Position numbers and translations under genes: made by a program
Virus record (IMG/VR): IMGVR_UViG_3300042445_002020
Reading direction: 5' to 3' (one strand)
Source of the DNA: an uncultured virus (IMG/VR IMGVR_UViG_3300042445_002020)
Taxonomy: Duplodnaviria > Heunggongvirae > Uroviricota > Caudoviricetes
DNA length: 20,000 bases
In this document: one piece after another, positions 4,520 through 19,321 of the stretch
Layout: each line of letters opens with the position of its first letter
Position numbering within the stretch: position 1 is the stretch's first letter
Notes under the pieces: generated by a model
What the model saw: only the letters and a program-made list of their open reading frames with translations
Database searches by the model: none
What the model was told of the DNA's origin: nothing

Positions 4520-5140
4520 TTAAATTGTTTTATAAAAATTGTTTTGTTTTTCTTGACGTTCTATTGTCTTATGGTGTTGTATACAATAATCGTCGTCATC
4601 GGTTGGTAATGATGAAAATTTTTGACCACCTAAAATTCGTTCGTGAACCTTACCATACCAACTCATTCCTTTCTTATAGATTCTTCCCTGTGCATCAGGA
4701 TAGTTAACCCATCCCTTATTGTTTACATTCCACCCCCACTTTTTAATATGTTCATCGGTTAAACCTTGAACTGTATTAATTCTTGGAACAAATATTAAGT
4801 CCACACCAGGATTCATTTCTAATATTTGATGTAAGTTTTGTACCATATACTCACTAATCATTTCATCTGCATCAAGTTGGTAAATGTAATTACCTTTACA
4901 ATAACCATTTAATATGTTTTTAAAATCTGCAAAATTATTATTCCAATCAAAACATTTCCACGTTTGAACATTGGGTAATTTATTGTATGGTAATAAGAAA
5001 TCTAATACTTCAGGGTTACCATTTTTTTCATCATATAGAATCACAATCTCGTCTTGAGCTCTCTTGTGTTTCAATATGAATGGTACCAACTTCTTGATTT
5101 CCTCCAACTCGTTGCAAACTGTTATCGCAAAACTTATCAT
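4520..5140 (-). CDS. Glycosyltransferase family 2
   Basis: MISFAITVCNE (start 5140; alternative start 5158), NFADFKN, LDADE (DxD), YPDAQGR and KVHE. Confidence 0.85.
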   Translation of the reverse strand: MISFAITVCNELEEIKKLVPFILKHKRAQDEIVILYDEKNGNPEVLDFLLPYNKLPNVQTWKCFDWNNNFADFKNILNGYCKGNYIYQLDADEMISEYMVQNLHQILEMNPGVDLIFVPRINTVQGLTDEHIKKWGWNVNNKGWVNYPDAQGRIYKKGMSWYGKVHERILGGQKFSSLPTDDDDYCIQHHKTIERQEKQNNFYKTI

Positions 5141-5231
5141 ATTTCTTTTTGTTTTCATTTATTGTTAATTCCTCACACCTCCAACACCACTCTTTATTTT
5201 CCGTATCCCAAATATGTCTTTCACATTTCAT
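5031..5231 (-). CDS. Small Cys/His protein, possible zinc ribbon
   Basis: ATG overlaps the upstream TGA (ATGA). N-terminus CERH-x9-CWRC. The 3' half overlaps the GT2 gene in another frame. Confidence 0.5.
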   Translation of the reverse strand: MKCERHIWDTENKEWCWRCEELTINENKKKYDKFCDNSLQRVGGNQEVGTIHIETQESSRRDCDSI

Positions 5232-5479
5232 GCTCTATTATCTCCTATATTCATCCACCAATCAAGATAATTAAAATTATCACCACCATTTATTTTTCTT
5301 GTTAGTCTTTCTATTATATCCTCATCAATACTTCTTGAAATTTCTTCCGACATCACTCTAATTAATTCTGCTTCAACATCGACACGTCTTTCATTAAAAC
5401 CATCAAGATCCCAAACCGCACGAAGTCTTCTAGCCCCCTTTTTTGATATCCCATGAAAAAATTTAAATTCACTAACCAT
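5228..5479 (-). CDS. Small protein (83 aa) resembling a segment of a T4 gp23-type major capsid protein
   Basis: Likely start ATG 5479 (MVSEFKFFHG). RRLRAVW...VDVEAELIRVMSEEISRSIDEDIIERL matches by eye the gp23 pattern RxLxAx[YW]...D[AV][DE]AELxxxLxxEIxxEI[ND]xE[IV][IV]. Confidence 0.6.
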   Translation of the reverse strand: MVSEFKFFHGISKKGARRLRAVWDLDGFNERRVDVEAELIRVMSEEISRSIDEDIIERLTRKINGGDNFNYLDWWMNIGDNRA

Positions 5480-5732
5480 TTTGTCTCTCCCTCGCAAATA
5501 ATTTAAACTCTCTACCATTATTGTTGAATGCAATATTACTATCTGAAGTTGGACTTAATTGGATTGAACATTCATTAGGACCTGTGGCAAAGACAACCGG
5601 TTCTTCCTCATCAAATTGAAAACAAAACTCAACATCTTCAGAAATAAACATTGGTCGAGTTAACGTTAATAGTTGTGTTGGTTCCAATTCTAAAAACAAG
5701 TTAGTCTTCCCTTGAAAAAATTTAAAGTTCAT
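5472..5732 (-). CDS. Hypothetical protein (acidic, probably beta-rich)
   Basis: ATG 5732 (or GTG 5735) directly after the GT4 stop. Its stop overlaps the next start. N-terminus is MNFKFFQG. Confidence 0.65.
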   Translation of the reverse strand: MNFKFFQGKTNLFLELEPTQLLTLTRPMFISEDVEFCFQFDEEEPVVFATGPNECSIQLSPTSDSNIAFNNNGREFKLFARERQNG

Positions 5733-5736
5733 CACC

Positions 5737-6984
5737 TTATTTTATTTTAGTAAGTTTAGGTAGTATAAGTTTTTGTTCTTTTGGTTGTACTGAGAATGGA
5801 TTAATAATATCTTTAAACTTTTCTTTCATTTTTTCCATTGAGAATTTTTCTTTATTCTCATCACCCAACATCATAGACTTCTCTAAAAATTTATCGTAGT
5901 CTTTATAAACCAATTTAAAAACTTCAGTCACTTCGTTGTAGTTTGCGGTAAACCATTTAGAATCTTTCAATATAAAAGTATCAACCGCACTTTCATGAAC
6001 CTCGGTTAATTTACCACCAATCATAATTGCTTTATCCATTGGTAGGAAATCCTTATGTCCTGACCAGTTTGATGCAATTACGGGTTTACCTGTCATTGTA
6101 AATTCTAATAAAGGTCTACCAAACCCTTCACCTTTTGTAATCGTTACCATTGATTTAACTTTAGGATGATTATATAAATTATTCATCTCATCATTAGTTA
6201 AATCACCAAACAACAAATAGATTGACGGTGGATTTTTATAATCACTCACTAACCCTTCTATCTTCTTTCTAAAACTTTCTCTTTCTTTAATTGAGAACGA
6301 TGCGGATGATGTTTTAAGGATAAGTGCGGGTCTATCTTCAACATCTTTAAATGCTTCTGCGAAACATCTAATCAACATACCAACATCTTTTCTATCTTGA
6401 CCTGTGTCACCCTTTAACCAATGACCAACAAACAAGTAAGCAAAATCTTCTTTGATGTCAATGTCAATATTGTTATAAACGTTGTTGTATATTTTGGTAT
6501 CAACACCTTCAAATAGAACTTCAATTTGTCTTTCAATCTTATGTTGTTTAATTAACTTACCAGTATTTTGTTCATTCTCATTGTAAACTGTTTGTAACAA
6601 AACATCTTTTGAAAACGTGGACGTTGTAATGATTAAATCCATTCTATTACAACCATCAATCCAATCCTTAGGTGCAATAGTCGTTTCAATGCCAGCAGTA
6701 ATCCCGATATTAAATTTACCAACTCTTTGGAATTCATTTGGAACAGTTACTTGAACGTAAATGTCTGGTGTTTTTTCTAATTGATTAACAATATTAGACT
6801 CAATCCATTTATGAAATAAATTATCTTCCAATGCCGTCATCGGGGTTGAACCCCACATACAACTATCAATCTTGATTTCAAACAAATCCATTTCATAAAG
6901 TGCTTGTAACAAATCTCTTGAGTGGGCACCATATCCACTTCTTGTTTTAACTGGTCCTCTAAATAATAAAAATGGTTTGTTCAT
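5737..6984 (-). CDS. Glycosyltransferase family 4 (GT-B)
   Basis: SGYGAHSR, FEGVD, YLFVGHW, DRKDVG and GEGFGRPLLE...PVIASNWSGH (GT4 ExFGxxxxE motif). Confidence 0.9.
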   Translation of the reverse strand: MNKPFLLFRGPVKTRSGYGAHSRDLLQALYEMDLFEIKIDSCMWGSTPMTALEDNLFHKWIESNIVNQLEKTPDIYVQVTVPNEFQRVGKFNIGITAGIETTIAPKDWIDGCNRMDLIITTSTFSKDVLLQTVYNENEQNTGKLIKQHKIERQIEVLFEGVDTKIYNNVYNNIDIDIKEDFAYLFVGHWLKGDTGQDRKDVGMLIRCFAEAFKDVEDRPALILKTSSASFSIKERESFRKKIEGLVSDYKNPPSIYLLFGDLTNDEMNNLYNHPKVKSMVTITKGEGFGRPLLEFTMTGKPVIASNWSGHKDFLPMDKAIMIGGKLTEVHESAVDTFILKDSKWFTANYNEVTEVFKLVYKDYDKFLEKSMMLGDENKEKFSMEKMKEKFKDIINPFSVQPKEQKLILPKLTKIK

Positions 6985-6985
6985 A

Positions 6986-8347
6986 TTATATAATCTTGTA
7001 TAAATTAAATTTACTTCTTGGTTTAAAATTCTCTAAGGTTTGTTCAATACCCTCAATCATTTTATCACACATTATTTTATTTGATAGATTGTTAATCATA
7101 AACTTCCTACCCTTTAATCCTTTTTCTTTTCTTTTCTTCTTACCAATTTTATACATCTCCATGATGGCATTTGCAACATCATTGTCATTAACTCTATCGT
7201 CAAAGATATATGGTGTTGGTACCGAACCATTCAAATTAATAGCTGACGACCAAACAGGTTCAACCCAGTCACCATGATTTATGTTACCATGTACTTCTTT
7301 ATTGTGAAGTGTACCTACATTAATGTAATCATCTTCTGTATAATCAAATCCACATTGGTCTTGTAAACCACCAGTAACATTAACAATGATTGGTACGCCT
7401 GCCATTAAACTCTCAGCAGTTGTTAATCCAAATCCTTCATTGTTTGCAATGTTAATCGTACAATCAACACCATTGTAAATTTCATTTAATTTATCTTGTT
7501 CCAATTTTAAATTGGTGAACTTAACGTCGTAATCTTTACAAACAGCATCAATTACAGCAGGTAAGTCGGTACCATTCTCATCAACAGGATTCGTGTGCAT
7601 TAGTAACAAACACTTATCCGCCTTTTCTTTTGGTAACATATCACAGAACAATCTAAATGAATAAATCACATCACTTGGTTGTTTCCTTCTAATGTTTCTG
7701 CTGTTAAAGAATAAAACAAAATCATATTTCTTATCACCATGAATTAAATTATTAATATCATCCGATATTCTATCCAATGGTTTAAATAAATCAGGATTAA
7801 TACCATGAGGAACATAACTAATTTGCCAATCCTTTAGTGGATTAAATGTTACTTTATCAGTTCTCTTACCAACACGATGTACGATACCATACGTTTGTTT
7901 AGATATACAACCCAACCAATCACAAGATTCAAAAACATCTCTATTGTATTGTGGGTCCGGTAAATCATCCCATATATGATAAAATAATATTGGAGTGTGT
8001 CGTCTTATCTCATGCTCAACATCATATAACCACTGCCAATAATGTGGGTCAGTAAAGTGTAAAATGGCATCTGGTTTCTCATCGTCTATTAATTTACGAA
8101 GAATACCAACGTCACCATAACCATTATACGGAATAATTTTCAAATTAGCATCTTTAACACCGGTCCTTGTTCTAATATCGTCGTTAACATCAACAATTTT
8201 ACCGAACTCAGGATGTTTAATCGCTGCACCTAATTGTACCCAATCATATTTGTGAATGGTACCCATCACAATTTCTTTCGACATAGTGGCAATTCCGGAT
8301 GTCATCCTTAAATCGTCAGATAATAAAAGTATTTTTTTCTTCTTCAT
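6986..8347 (-). CDS. Glycosyltransferase family 4 (GT-B)
   Basis: Likely start ATG 8347 (MKKKKILLLSDD). TSGIA, VPHGIN, RNIRRK and NEGFGLTTAESLMAGVPII. Confidence 0.9.
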   Translation of the reverse strand: MKKKKILLLSDDLRMTSGIATMSKEIVMGTIHKYDWVQLGAAIKHPEFGKIVDVNDDIRTRTGVKDANLKIIPYNGYGDVGILRKLIDDEKPDAILHFTDPHYWQWLYDVEHEIRRHTPILFYHIWDDLPDPQYNRDVFESCDWLGCISKQTYGIVHRVGKRTDKVTFNPLKDWQISYVPHGINPDLFKPLDRISDDINNLIHGDKKYDFVLFFNSRNIRRKQPSDVIYSFRLFCDMLPKEKADKCLLLMHTNPVDENGTDLPAVIDAVCKDYDVKFTNLKLEQDKLNEIYNGVDCTINIANNEGFGLTTAESLMAGVPIIVNVTGGLQDQCGFDYTEDDYINVGTLHNKEVHGNINHGDWVEPVWSSAINLNGSVPTPYIFDDRVNDNDVANAIMEMYKIGKKKRKEKGLKGRKFMINNLSNKIMCDKMIEGIEQTLENFKPRSKFNLYKII

Positions 8348-13290: not shown

Positions 13291-15192
13291 ATGGAAGACA
13301 TTATCACTCAAAGGTTCAATTACGCAACCATCACCGTATTTAAGGATTATTCTAAATTAATTGATAGGAAAGAGTTAATAAACTCCGTTTCCACTAATTT
13401 AGATTCACTTGATGGGTATGATGATTTATTTGAAAAAAATAAAAAAAATATTAGATTTTTCATTGATAATATACGTAGACCCACAACAGGTAGGATAGTT
13501 GATTTCCCCGAAAAAGTCGGTAAAAGAAAAACCAAGTTTTTTTATGGGGAATCGGAAGTAAATGAAACAACAACCATAAACTACGCAATTAGAAACTTTC
13601 AAACAAGAGACGATAGACACATTAAACGACACTATGGTAATGCGTTTAGTGAGATATCGGTAACCACAATTGAACGTTCAATTAGAAAACATGGAGATAA
13701 GATAACAATAAAAGTTTATCGTAATCATAGTCATAGAGATTTTAATAACATCTATTTCAGAAAATCATTAAGTGTTGAATCGGTAACCTTCAACCTTAAA
13801 ACAGGTAATTTTACCACACTTAGCATGAATAAAAGTGGTAAGAAAACAAGCAAAACATTTAGAACTAACAATTTCAATTTTTTGGATATGCAATTCAAAG
13901 ATGGTGGAATTTTAAACATGAGAAAATGTTTAGATGATGACTCAGTTCTTCTGAAAGAATATAATGAAACATTTAATAATACCGATTTTATTTATGAGAT
14001 AGATAAAATATTCAATCTTAATCAAAATTTTAGTTTTAATGGTACGTGGTTCTGTCAATTAATGTTAGAACGTTTTGTCGAATTGAAAAAAATTAAAGTA
14101 TCAAACAACTACGAATATTGGATTAAGAAATACTACCCAACTGAAAAATTCCTAAAGAAAAACGATAGGAAACTCATCGCATCAATTTTAGATCTATTTG
14201 AAATCAAATCTAAAATTACAATTAAATTAATGCACGAGAATAGTAAAATGGATATTAATTCGTTGGCTCGTCTATGTTATTTTTTTGGTGATAACTTCTC
14301 AAAATACATTGGCAGCATTGAAACGAGACATTTTTTGAATACATCAAACGAAAGTAGTTATTCAGATGGTGGACATCCTAAATTTAAGTTCGCTAAAGAA
14401 TTTAAAAACCACGAGTTTCAAATCAGTAATAACGAAAAAGAAAATATTGTTAAAATTCTTAACAATTTAAATTGTGAAGTTAAAGGTTACCAAAGAATAA
14501 TATTAACTCATGAAAAAGAAACATTAATTAACCCGAGGTTTGTTGGTGATTTACATGACCATTTTAATATGATTAAAAAGTTACGTGAATTCATTCCCGA
14601 TTTACAACTAAGGGCTAAGAACATTGATGACTTTGATAAGGAACATGTTGAATTATCTAAAATGATGAAGTTCATTAAAAAGGGTTATGTTATTGAATAT
14701 CGATTTGCAGATAAAATGGTTGAGGATGTTGAATCACCAATTAAAGTTAAGATTAATTTAAGTGATGATGAATCAAAACCAGAGTGGGTTACACCCGAAT
14801 ATTATCCTCACATTTTAAAAAGAGAAGAGGAATACGATGAAGAGGGTAGATTCATGCATCATTGTGTGGCATCATATTCTGATAAAGACAGGTCAATTAT
14901 TATTTCAGTAAGAACTGACGATGGTAAAGATAGAGTAACCTGTGAGTTTGATTGTCAAACCGGTAATATGATTCAGGCAAGACACTTCTGTAATGCACAA
15001 CCACCCGCAGATATTGCTTTAGCTATTGAACAATTGAAAAGGAAAGCAACAACCTACGCGAGAATGGGAATTTTACATTGTATTGAAAGTAAAAAGGTAC
15101 CGGTTAAAATTAATGGAATTGAGGTAATCCCAGAAAAGAAAGAACCAATAGCACAAAGTACATTCGATAGACTATTTGAACCCCAATTTTAA
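13291..15192 (+). CDS. PcfJ-like domain protein (paralog 1)
   Basis: 633 aa; C-terminal EEYDEEGRFMHHCVASY...IISVR...RVTCEF...QARHFCN fits the PcfJ-like signature EGxxMxHCVxxY. Confidence 0.75.
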   Translation: MEDIITQRFNYATITVFKDYSKLIDRKELINSVSTNLDSLDGYDDLFEKNKKNIRFFIDNIRRPTTGRIVDFPEKVGKRKTKFFYGESEVNETTTINYAIRNFQTRDDRHIKRHYGNAFSEISVTTIERSIRKHGDKITIKVYRNHSHRDFNNIYFRKSLSVESVTFNLKTGNFTTLSMNKSGKKTSKTFRTNNFNFLDMQFKDGGILNMRKCLDDDSVLLKEYNETFNNTDFIYEIDKIFNLNQNFSFNGTWFCQLMLERFVELKKIKVSNNYEYWIKKYYPTEKFLKKNDRKLIASILDLFEIKSKITIKLMHENSKMDINSLARLCYFFGDNFSKYIGSIETRHFLNTSNESSYSDGGHPKFKFAKEFKNHEFQISNNEKENIVKILNNLNCEVKGYQRIILTHEKETLINPRFVGDLHDHFNMIKKLREFIPDLQLRAKNIDDFDKEHVELSKMMKFIKKGYVIEYRFADKMVEDVESPIKVKINLSDDESKPEWVTPEYYPHILKREEEYDEEGRFMHHCVASYSDKDRSIIISVRTDDGKDRVTCEFDCQTGNMIQARHFCNAQPPADIALAIEQLKRKATTYARMGILHCIESKKVPVKINGIEVIPEKKEPIAQSTFDRLFEPQF

Positions 15193-15204
15193 CTACACAA
15201 TGTC

Positions 15205-15239
15205 AATAAATCCATATATATTTTGTATATGGATTTATT
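15205..15239 (+). repeat. Perfect 14-bp inverted repeat enclosing the start codon of PcfJ-like paralog 2
   Basis: AATAAATCCATATA (15205-15218), loop TATTTTG, TATATGGATTTATT (15226-15239). ATG is at 15229. Confidence 0.85.
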
Positions 15240-16617
15240 ATTTAAATACAACCAAGAGAAGAAAGATAAGTACAATTCAAAATCTACCTGTGATTTAAAG
15301 TTGTTCTATGATGGTACCACAATCATATACGATTCATTGTTTGATTTCGAATACCAAAGATATGGTAACAAAAAAAAAGTTCAATTTTACCATAACCTAT
15401 CCTTTAGTACGATTACGGGAGACGTTATTGTTACATATAAAATCATCAACGATAATTTAACCAACGAGAAATCATATAACAACAAAACAAAAACTAAAAA
15501 GAATGATTTTAATTTATTGTTTGAGTTAACCGATAATGGATTTATTAGAGGTGAAAAAAGAATTGGATACTGGGGAGTAAAATATCACAGAGCTCAAGAT
15601 ACAATATGTGAAATGATGATGAATGTATTGAGACCTAAATTCACATCATTATTTTTAAAAGATAAAGAGTACAATAAACCATCACTTAATCGAATGTACG
15701 ATATGTTGGTTGATTTTCATTTGGATTGTAAGAATATTAAATCTCATGATGGAATATATTACGATATACAAAATGATTACCCCAAAAAGAAATGGTTAGT
15801 AAAGAACGATTATAAGTTCCTACCCGCTGTCCTAGATTCGTATGGAATAAAATCCAGATACTTAATTGGTGAATTAAACAAATACGAAGGTAAACCAATA
15901 CACATTAGTTCTTTAAATTACATTTGTAAGTTATTCGGTGAAAATTACATTGACTACATTAAAAAAATAGTGTGGGAAAATCATTGTTTTGATTTACCAC
16001 CAAACAAAAAGACACACCAACTTAAAAATGAATCTGAGAAGGATTGTATGGTAAAGGCTATCAATAATTGGGAAACCGAAACGTTAAGATCGGACACTCT
16101 TATTTATTCGTTAAACAAGTTATTTTCAATACGAGATTTATTGGAAGCTAAAAAAATAGATTTAAAGTTTAAGGCAAAGAATGATAATGAATTTGAAAAC
16201 CATATGGAGACTTGGTTAGGATACAAATTACACTTTTCCAGAGGATATAGAGTTAGGTACTCAATACCGACAGATATTGTTAATGATGTAGAGACAGATA
16301 TTGTCCTTAATGGTGAAATTTATAAACCAAACGTATTGTTGACAGAAGAAGATTATAGGGTTGAGGGGTTTACCATGAAGAATTGTATGGCTAAACAATT
16401 TCCTCACGGATCTATCTATATTTTTATATCTTTACATCATGGAAGAAAAAGGATTAACCTACAATATAGAAAAGGTAATCTAATACAATCATATGGTAAG
16501 GCAAATACAAAAGTTTCCGATTCATATAATGAAGTAATTGATATATTAACACAAAGAATGAAAAAATATCACAACATAGAGTGGAAAAAAGAGAAATACG
16601 ACTTCTTAAGTTATTGA
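15229..16617 (+). CDS. PcfJ-like domain protein (paralog 2)
   Basis: Likely start ATG 15229. EEDYRVEGFTMKNCMAKQ and QSYGKAN. Shares YPxxKxLxKNDxK and CxxFGxN blocks with paralog 1. Confidence 0.7.
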   Translation: MDLLFKYNQEKKDKYNSKSTCDLKLFYDGTTIIYDSLFDFEYQRYGNKKKVQFYHNLSFSTITGDVIVTYKIINDNLTNEKSYNNKTKTKKNDFNLLFELTDNGFIRGEKRIGYWGVKYHRAQDTICEMMMNVLRPKFTSLFLKDKEYNKPSLNRMYDMLVDFHLDCKNIKSHDGIYYDIQNDYPKKKWLVKNDYKFLPAVLDSYGIKSRYLIGELNKYEGKPIHISSLNYICKLFGENYIDYIKKIVWENHCFDLPPNKKTHQLKNESEKDCMVKAINNWETETLRSDTLIYSLNKLFSIRDLLEAKKIDLKFKAKNDNEFENHMETWLGYKLHFSRGYRVRYSIPTDIVNDVETDIVLNGEIYKPNVLLTEEDYRVEGFTMKNCMAKQFPHGSIYIFISLHHGRKRINLQYRKGNLIQSYGKANTKVSDSYNEVIDILTQRMKKYHNIEWKKEKYDFLSY

Positions 16618-18214: not shown

Positions 18215-18685
18215 ATGGCATACGGAGATAAGGTGATAGACCATTTCAATAATCCAAGAAACGTAGGAACCTTGGATAAATCTAAGTTAAGCGTGGGAAC
18301 AGGCTTGGTTGGTGCACCTGAATGTGGTGATGTCATGAGATTACAAATAGAAGTGATTGACAACATCATTGTTGATGCAAAATTTAAAACCTTCGGATGT
18401 GGTTCAGCAATCGCCTCTTCTTCAGTAGCCACTGAATGGTTGAAAGGAAAGAGTATCGATGATGCGTTGACGATTGATAACATGGATTTAGTGGAGGAAC
18501 TATCGTTACCTCCAGTTAAGATACATTGTTCAGTATTGGCTGAAGATGCTATTAAATCCGCAATAAATGACTATAGAAAGAAGCAAGGATTACAAGAAAT
18601 TAAATTCGAGGATATCTTTAATGACGAAAAAAGAGAAAGTGTTAAACAGTTTATTTTAGAAAACAAACAAAAAAATAAGTTATGA
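18215..18685 (+). CDS. iscU: Fe-S cluster scaffold IscU
   Basis: DHFNNPRNVG, GAPECGDVM, FKTFGCGSAIASSS and LPPVKIHCS (three Cys plus the HscA-binding LPPVK motif), with a charged C-terminal extension. Confidence 0.95.
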   Translation: MAYGDKVIDHFNNPRNVGTLDKSKLSVGTGLVGAPECGDVMRLQIEVIDNIIVDAKFKTFGCGSAIASSSVATEWLKGKSIDDALTIDNMDLVEELSLPPVKIHCSVLAEDAIKSAINDYRKKQGLQEIKFEDIFNDEKRESVKQFILENKQKNKL

Positions 18686-18990
18686 GTTTTATCATTGGTA
18701 GGGCTTGTGTTGATTGTATGGATACTGCATGTGCAAATGTGTGTCCTGTTGATTGTATTCACGGACCAATTGATATAGAGGGTTCAGGTTCGGAAGTTGG
18801 GAAACAAGGTAAAGATGCGTTCCCTGGTGGACAACTTTACATAAATCCAGATATATGTATCAATTGTGGTGCATGTGTACCTGAATGTCCCGTTAGTGCT
18901 ATTTATGAGGACGAAGATTTAGCAATAAAAGCAGGTGATGAAGAGTATGTTCATAAGAACTACGAATTCTTTGGTTTAAAATATAATTAA
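18682..18990 (+). CDS. Dicluster ferredoxin, probably 7Fe ([3Fe-4S][4Fe-4S]) FdxA type
   Basis: CVDCMDTACANVCPVDC (Cx2Cx4Cx3CP, as in Azotobacter FdI) and CINCGACVPECP. ATGA overlap with iscU. Confidence 0.9.
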   Translation: MSFIIGRACVDCMDTACANVCPVDCIHGPIDIEGSGSEVGKQGKDAFPGGQLYINPDICINCGACVPECPVSAIYEDEDLAIKAGDEEYVHKNYEFFGLKYN

Positions 18991-18991
18991 G

Positions 18992-19321
18992 ATGGTTACA
19001 GTATCGGATAAAGCACTTGAACATGTTATAGAATTAATGATGAATCAGGGGATAAATCCTGATACTCATTACCTTCGTGTTGGGGTTAAAGGTGGTGGAT
19101 GTAGTGGATTATCATATGCAATGGATTTTGACGACACAATAACTGATATGGATGAAGTTGTTGATTTAAATGTATTGAGGGTTATAATAGATAAAAAATC
19201 AGTTCTATATCTATATGGTACCGAATTAGACTATTCCGATGGATTAAACGGAAAAGGTTTTAATTGGATTAACCCACAGGCAAGCCGCACTTGTGGATGT
19301 GGAGAAAGTTTTGCTCTCTAA
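18992..19321 (+). CDS. iscA: A-type Fe-S carrier (IscA/SufA/HesB family)
   Basis: LRVGVKGGGCSGLSY, LYGTELDY and NPQASRTCGCGESF. Confidence 0.93.
   Translation: MVTVSDKALEHVIELMMNQGINPDTHYLRVGVKGGGCSGLSYAMDFDDTITDMDEVVDLNVLRVIIDKKSVLYLYGTELDYSDGLNGKGFNWINPQASRTCGCGESFAL

Follow-up and report, generated by a model that had tools for sequence, protein, structure and literature searches.

A minus-strand gene at positions 5228–5479 of a 20,000-nucleotide stretch of uncultured phage DNA (the whole stretch is called the window) encodes an 83-residue protein, here the mini-protein, that joins an N-terminal FKFF tag, a piece of capsid protein and a tail resembling GH19 endolysins. Profile comparisons identify the central piece as a copy of the P-domain core of a gp23-type capsid protein, made long ago and since diverged, and comparison of homologous loci identifies the gene as real, intact and under purifying selection. 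The mini-protein is a putative tagged bait for host proteins that recognize the capsid protein, an assignment that is tentative and falls somewhat short of probable. The features of the locus are:

5228..5479, minus strand: mini-gene, 83 amino acids, FKFF tag plus capsid-protein piece plus GH19-like tail
5450..5467, minus strand: FKFFHG tag, residues 5–10 of the mini-protein, also present in the upstream gene and in numerous unrelated small proteins encoded by related phages
5300..5431, minus strand: capsid-derived segment, residues 17–60, equivalent to 343–390 of a relative's capsid protein and 264–311 of T4 gp23
5258..5326, minus strand: GH19-endolysin-like tail (moderate support), residues about 52–74, overlapping the end of the capsid helix
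5282–5302, minus strand: T-R-K-I-N-G-G, core motif of the tail in the window copy
5472..5732, minus strand: upstream FKFF-tagged gene, 86 amino acids
5031..5231, minus strand: small ORF downstream whose N-terminal part carries a conserved C-x2-H...W-C-W-x-C pattern (27/43 loci)
5737..6984, minus strand: GT4 glycosyltransferase, upstream of the mini-gene in 43/43 loci
6986..8347, minus strand: second GT4 glycosyltransferase, near the operon head
4520..5158, minus strand: GT2 glycosyltransferase, downstream of the mini-gene in 41/43 loci; the contigs of the other two loci end early

The open reading frame, its translation and the position of residues 17–59 at 5431–5303 agree with a preliminary description of this DNA, as does the claim of an intact gene overlapping both neighbors, the overlaps being 8 nt with the upstream gene and 4 nt (ATGA) with the downstream ORF. 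Translation likely starts at position 5479, since the majority of homologs begin 2–5 residues ahead of the tag; an in-frame ATG at 5518 falls within the upstream gene. The downstream ORF extends out of frame across the GT2 start; it has a conserved C-x2-H...C-x2-C beginning, and in some relatives the ORF is fused in frame to an epimerase. A contig from a lake DNA run is identical to the window across 5210–5506 (the run is independent, but may be the source sample), and 20 of the 24 runs listed are lake DNA. Three RNA runs available as contigs leave the mini-gene uncovered and are uninformative on expression. T4 late-promoter and Bacteroidota promoter motifs were not enriched.

The window is part of a large freshwater phage genome. 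A relative of the window phage, G005, is 316 kb and 95% complete, and the window's GT4 is 44% identical to the GT4 of Flavobacterium phage immuto. A Bacteroidota host is likely because two mini-protein homologs are placed in Bacteroidota bins. Elsewhere in the window, positions 18215–19321 (plus strand) hold a phage-borne cluster resembling, from sequence, IscU/NifU, a 4Fe-4S ferredoxin and IscA, and NifU_N was confirmed in a relative. Two large tandem genes occupy 13291–16617 (plus strand); the first has a PcfJ-like domain, and the second is seemingly related and has no family match.

Taken alone, the mini-protein gives a weak match to Pfam Gp23 (E = 0.011; 15.7 bits, under the 24.4 cut-off) and to PHROG 138 (E = 0.011), and no gp23 match in the PDB at E ≤ 10; an Arc-like PDB match (E = 0.064) is a chance helix. 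A search of 1.84 billion representatives returned 53 matches, 52 of them 41–142 residues long. Removing one of these matches as a repeat artefact (P0049) and adding four of five close matches and the query gave an alignment of 57 rows (A1), in which the likeness to a gp23 segment proposed earlier becomes clear. Pfam Gp23 (PF07068) is matched by 50 of the 57 members at E ≤ 0.01 (best 1.5e-16) and PHROG 138 by 47. The best PDB matches of the family profile are T4 gp23 264–311 (E = 3e-4), the stretch that the preliminary description had named, and hhalign of the family against 29 capsid proteins places residues 17–60 on 343–390 with a probability of 99.2% and E = 3.6e-19. The matched 44–48-residue segment of gp23 covers a strand, a short helix and the spine helix. 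The window copy belongs to the more strongly diverged part of the family, and the loop shortening described for it is specific to it, as many homologs keep the full-length segment. A wider profile search, covering 6,310 candidates of 22–249 residues, yielded 566 proteins; the 120 listed ones were used, and homologs beyond these may include broken capsid genes. A search for longer fused forms found just three capsid proteins among 7,999 candidates scored, which is weak evidence against such forms. In NCBIfam one homolog matched OXA beta-lactamases and SufB at 17 bits, against a cut-off of about 600 bits, and these matches were treated as chance.

The capsid reference is the 575-residue capsid protein of G005, standing in for the window phage's own. 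G005 carries both the mini-gene and the full capsid gene, 180 kb apart, and the two products are 50% identical over 52 residues. Residues 17–60 are homologous to gp23 264–311 in gp23-type major capsid proteins (PDB 6uzc, 5vf3), but the mini-protein corresponds to about 45 of 575 residues. Its 83 residues cannot hold the full HK97 fold (N-arm, E-loop, P- and A-domain): the match is confined to 343–390, the A-domain, N-arm and E-loop are missing, and two small residues of the helix have turned to arginine. Its gene is remote from head genes while the full capsid gene is still present elsewhere; as claimed earlier, no head genes lie nearby among the 20 window proteins scanned, and the capsid motif was found in 0 of 43 mini-gene neighborhoods. 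The AlphaFold2 model (pLDDT 63) is fairly confident solely for helix 35–63, and Foldseek with this low-confidence model returned no structural match. The capsid protein model has helices at 351–358 and 361–391, with low confidence at 338–375; the long helix is presumably the spine helix of the HK97 fold. In the ESM Atlas the mini-protein matches unnamed clusters and one Gp23-domain cluster under the bar. Complex prediction for the G005 mini-protein and its own capsid protein scored 0.00 twice with both chains lacking an alignment and gives no verdict. Since a role as subunit or enzyme is not possible, we infer that the mini-protein is a binding protein belonging to a tag-based accessory set.

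A DNA pattern search located 43 viral loci, among them that on the window's own contig, which together encode 23 distinct proteins. Internal stops occur in none of the 43, and the proteins are 69–102 residues long. The median pairwise dN/dS is 0.41 (24 genes; 256 of 276 pairs usable, 255 of these below 1), a value from non-independent pairs and from a pattern that favors members retaining the motif; the closest pairs range from 0.12 to 0.51, and the neighboring GT4 and GT2 genes have values of 0.14 and 0.11. The expectation that homologs would be short, intact and under purifying selection is thus borne out, and neither of the two findings named beforehand as contradicting the gp23 assignment, lack of a profile match or a neutrally evolving frameshifted remnant, was obtained. 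At 24 residues common to the G005 mini-gene and capsid gene, 12 codons are identical and 12.3 are expected. Because codons are shared only as usage predicts, the likeness is held by selection and not by recent copying, and recent gene conversion from the phage's own capsid gene is rejected for this sole testable pair.

Conservation within the segment is selective. Over the shared columns (80 rows), identity is 49% both between mini-proteins and capsid protein and among the mini-proteins themselves, whereas the capsid segment is almost invariant within a lineage. Capsid residues D364, E366, E368 and S374 are also the mini-protein residues in 174–189 of 196 members, D382 in 196 of 196, and the tryptophan is kept. 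The hydrophobic stripe L369, L373, I377, I381, I385 and L389, probably buried in the folded capsid protein, is retained as bulky hydrophobic residues in 99–100% of the 196 members. Capsid A371 and A379 have become R or R/E, for the most part arginine, in 170 and 178 of 196 respectively, and the loop between strand and helix carries in-frame indels. At 357, 358 and 360 the mini-proteins show an Immutovirus-like capsid state (73%, 66% and 29% vs 4%, 0% and 3%); at 346, 353 and 376 they show the state of their own lineage. A 47-column tree resolves neither the origin nor the donor of the segment.

The capsid match is followed by T-[RK]-[RK]-[IV]-N-G-G in 150 of 196 members, the window copy included. 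Among 1,284 ORFs of related phages this motif is found only in four mini-proteins, three GH19-type endolysins and one other tagged protein, with 0.006 occurrences expected, although the motif was chosen after the fact. The tail-only profile has a phage chitinase as its top match outside the family (E = 6e-4), and its first five PDB matches are endolysin or lytic-enzyme chains (E = 0.026–0.12). In JGI, 'predicted chitinase' is the name given to 4 of the 120 homologs listed, and all eight members chosen on this ground match a PHROG chitinase (E = 0.006–0.074). Hhalign of the tail against GH19 gives a probability of 27% and E = 7e-4, with a score of 23.3 against a best of 18.6 in 60 shuffles. The GH19 profile scores above 8 bits in 10 of 196 members and in none of 980 controls; the window copy scores −1.2 bits. 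The Pfam GH19 catalytic domain is not matched by any of the 57 members, and just the last 30 profile positions align. Like GH19 endolysins (PF00182; PHROG 14712 and 181), the mini-protein has the same helix end and motif, and part of the family also has a similar D-x-[IL]-x-H-[FW] tail; it differs in that the piece is about 20 residues with weak scores and no catalytic region and in that the invariant lysine of the endolysins is arginine in 96% of the mini-proteins. Shared descent of the tail with a phage GH19 endolysin is probable from these comparisons, the alternative being a convergent helix cap.

The preliminary description had not noted the shared tag, the loss of lysine or the probable endolysin origin of the tail. 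F-K-F-F-x-G opens 187 of 196 family members in exact or near form. A census of seven sequences, two of them the window and the contig it comes from, found 39 FKFF-tagged ORFs in which the tag is spelled by 13 different codon combinations; these synonymous variants indicate constraint at the protein level and make a frameshift signal unlikely. The tag pattern is present in 5/5 records with the mini-gene and 0/5 without it. Among the tagged proteins scanned, 13 of 17 have no Pfam match at E ≤ 0.5. Two further tagged families carry capsid pieces, scoring 11.0 and 9.9 bits against a maximum of 4.4 in 800 shuffles. In one, the piece matches T4 residues about 96–120; the Gol peptide, trigger of the Lit defense, lies in this region, at 94–122. 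Gol is described as 29 residues in the first quarter of gp23 (PMC3014915). The gene at L157:1456–1923 is tagged and has this Gol-like N-terminal capsid region (Pfam Gp23 E = 4e-4), and the tagged family at L169:13270–13716 has a degenerate copy of the capsid region that runs up to the spine helix (9.9 bits; control maximum 4.4).

The upstream tagged gene (5472–5732) has as its body a lysine-poor paralog of an untagged 81–91-residue gene with a PCEW motif (BLAST E = 2e-5), and the untagged gene is present at the mini-gene site in 21 of 43 loci. Tagged and untagged copies occur together in 14 loci, the tagged copy alone in 22 and the untagged alone in 7; both end in F-K-L-F, near the tag motif, and the ESM Atlas gave no usable match for the PCEW protein. 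Thirteen tagged genes lie within 20 kb in locus L174 (G005 236–256 kb). At L169:11622–12101 is an unrelated tagged membrane-anchored protein with TRRINGG, of which the orthologs have just a degenerate form. Relatives encode tmRNA, 12 tRNAs and a ClpP protease (L172:18575–18984; L173:3259–6488; L015:16893–17567), with no tRNA for lysine in the part of their sequence examined. ClpP as a tag reader is not diagnostic: all five records contain it, including two without the tag pattern.

Lysine makes up 0.04% of 12,781 residues in the core of the mini-protein family against 7.2% in large proteins, and its median is 1.8% in 33 tagged proteins against 9.0% in 241 untagged small ORFs (orthologs counted repeatedly). 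The genome is AT-rich (31% GC), and GC bias as the reason is ruled out by abundant Ile (12%) and Asn (9.5%), whose codons are also AT-rich. Of 187 tagged members, 26 have another residue in place of the tag lysine, and the window copy has a rare lysine at residue 62. Lysine deserts are described for ubiquitin-ligase receptors and mycobacteriophage proteins in the available text of PMC13696103. As in these cullin-RING substrate receptors and Mycobacterium phage proteins, the mini-protein has its lysines at one end and K-to-R changes in the body; unlike them, it belongs to an AT-rich phage, and no ubiquitin- or Pup-type machinery was found. The E1, E2, JAB and Pup-ligase families were absent among 236 representatives of 392 proteins (130–900 residues) and ThiF was not found in 5/5 records, a scan of records 39–95% complete in which about 60% of the proteins have no family.

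The window mini-protein has no match in 50,697 GenBank phages, and a capsid-like member matches capsid genes only. Four partial records (45–86% complete) with capsid proteins 76–79% identical to that of G005 yielded no mini-gene, tag pattern or such GT4. Three genomes, those of Flavobacterium phage immuto_2-6A, of phage Mel-JY01 and of record G014, contain the GT4 and a GT cluster but not the mini-gene. By this distribution the mini-gene is an accessory gene of a tag-bearing clade, and its absence from close capsid relatives and from same-operon phages argues against an essential role in assembly or glycosylation. In tag-less G010, an untagged 67-residue ORF at L338:1483–1686 (minus strand) has a weak spine-helix match (E = 0.0015) and scores 3.4 bits on the capsid profile, within the control range.

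Of the three functions suggested in the preliminary description, a decoy is the leading candidate. In the proposed mechanism, the body of the mini-protein would show a conserved capsid epitope to a host protein that recognizes newly made capsid protein, either an immune sensor or a sensing chaperone. The FKFF tag would dock bait and catch on a common partner that sequesters or removes the catch, and the lysine-free body would spare the bait from lysine-directed modification or cutting, as in lysine-desert adaptors. The retained polar capsid residues, intactness, lysine loss, co-occurrence of tag and mini-gene and recurrence of capsid pieces in the tagged set all count for the bait, and the divergence of the mini-proteins over a near-invariant capsid segment is easier to reconcile with changing host partners than with a single fixed partner of the phage's own. 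CapRel-SJ46 is modeled on the P-domain sheet and spine helix and also touches A-domain loops (available text of PMC9712102), and overlap of the mini-protein with the modeled contact is a further point in favor. CmdC senses T4 gp23 (PMC11618068, partial text), and Avs7, Avs8 and Avs10 bind the A-domain via extended folded surfaces (PMC13581612, partial text). The piece overlaps the CapRel-contact region and a sister tagged gene has a Gol-like region, but the known systems (CapRel-SJ46, Lit/Gol, CmdTAC, Avs7/8/10) are E. coli or enterobacterial host systems that read whole capsid proteins, whereas the mini-protein is a fragment. A 45-residue piece without the A-domain cannot offer the Avs7/8/10 surface or the CapRel A-domain loops, which counts against the bait, and a fragment may trigger defense instead of blocking it where the sensor is of the chaperone or peptide type (CmdC, Lit). 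The lack of conjugation families in the scan, the replaced tag lysines, lysine 62, the −1.2-bit score of the window tail and a position within a sugar operon outside the tagged-gene array also count against it.

A bolder form of the bait proposal would make the tagged set modular: FKFF tags with lysine-free mosaics of the best-conserved epitopes of the phage's own late proteins (spine helix, Gol region, endolysin motif) would deliver host pattern-recognition proteins to one shared lysine-modifying or proteolytic machine. The window gene would be a two-epitope bait, and the set would play in phages the part that substrate receptors have in targeted degradation; we regard this extension as rather unlikely.

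The best-kept positions form the hydrophobic stripe, and complementation of the capsid protein fits this at least as well as a bait. MicroProteins are small inhibitory proteins derived from that part of a larger protein which makes its interactions. The mini-protein likewise derives from such a region; unlike microProteins, it bears the tag of a multi-gene set to which it belongs, along with a further motif of unrelated kind. As a dominant negative, the fragment would use the buried spine-helix face to swap into the folding capsid protein of the same or a co-infecting phage, and arginines at the former A371 and A379 on the other face would block lattice contacts. Head assembly would be delayed or tuned, or competitors excluded, and the endolysin-like tail could likewise affect lysis. 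The Immutovirus-like states at 357, 358 and 360 are compatible with a non-self target; the own-lineage states at 346, 353 and 376 and the lack of resolution in the tree speak against one. Fast divergence and loop indels sit poorly with a near-invariant partner, tag and lysine exclusion are left unexplained, and absence of the mini-gene from 4/4 partial genomes with close capsid proteins (76–79% identical) weakens an obligatory form of the assembly role suggested earlier. A dominant negative is possible but unlikely.

It is distinctly doubtful that the captured helix is a mere scaffold with a function in the tagged set unrelated to capsid recognition. Most tagged bodies indeed have no family, and the mini-gene dN/dS of 0.41 exceeds the 0.11–0.14 of the glycosyltransferases, but the capsid-specific polar residues and tryptophan are retained and capsid pieces recur in three tagged families. 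The preliminary description also suggested an adaptor that brings the GT4 and GT2 enzymes to the capsid for virion glycosylation, as the fixed place behind GT4 and before GT2 with overlapping stops and starts might imply. This is very improbable: three phages have the same GT4 and GT cluster without the mini-gene, a copy of the capsid core would imitate the substrate and not bind it, and the site also gathers tagged genes without capsid sequence, such as the upstream gene.

T4 internal proteins carry a capsid-targeting sequence, and the gp21-type maturation protease is glutamate-specific. An internal head protein with FKFF as the targeting sequence, avoiding lysine against a lysine-specific maturation protease, would account for a short N-terminal tag on diverse, unrelated small proteins, a feature the mini-protein shares with the T4 type. 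The motif of the tagged set differs from that of T4, and the lineage capsid keeps an invariant E60 in L-I-N-E that fits a glutamate-specific gp21-type protease, which would cut the glutamate-rich mini-protein body (11% glutamate, several L/I/V/M-x-E sites); the idea is highly unlikely. A decaying pseudogene or chance helix likeness, compatible with the weak single-sequence match and the missing structural match of a low-confidence model, is refuted by family homology and selection and has a negligible chance of being right.

Phage genes that combine a tag with a capsid fragment, and phage-encoded capsid-fragment decoys, are not described in the literature searched, which included few subscription papers, and the available text of a 2026 review of countermeasures (PMC13728456) mentions no such genes. 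The gene design is rated new because the mini-protein belongs to none of the families tested; its action may be of a known kind, decoy or microprotein. Capsid protein ranks among the main triggers of bacterial immunity against phages, and mutating it often offers them no escape: for CmdTAC, no gp23 escape mutants were found (PMC11618068, partial text). If the bait reading is true, the phage would sidestep this limit on escape in a new manner, by maintaining under selection a separate copy of the most conserved capsid core, and that copy would point to the epitopes read by Bacteroidota sensors. If the mini-protein instead acts on capsid folding, it would be a natural assembly inhibitor. On either reading, an almost complete avoidance of lysine in proteins of an AT-rich genome points to a lysine-directed process, new to the literature, at work when these phages infect. 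The genes are small and testable without phage culture.
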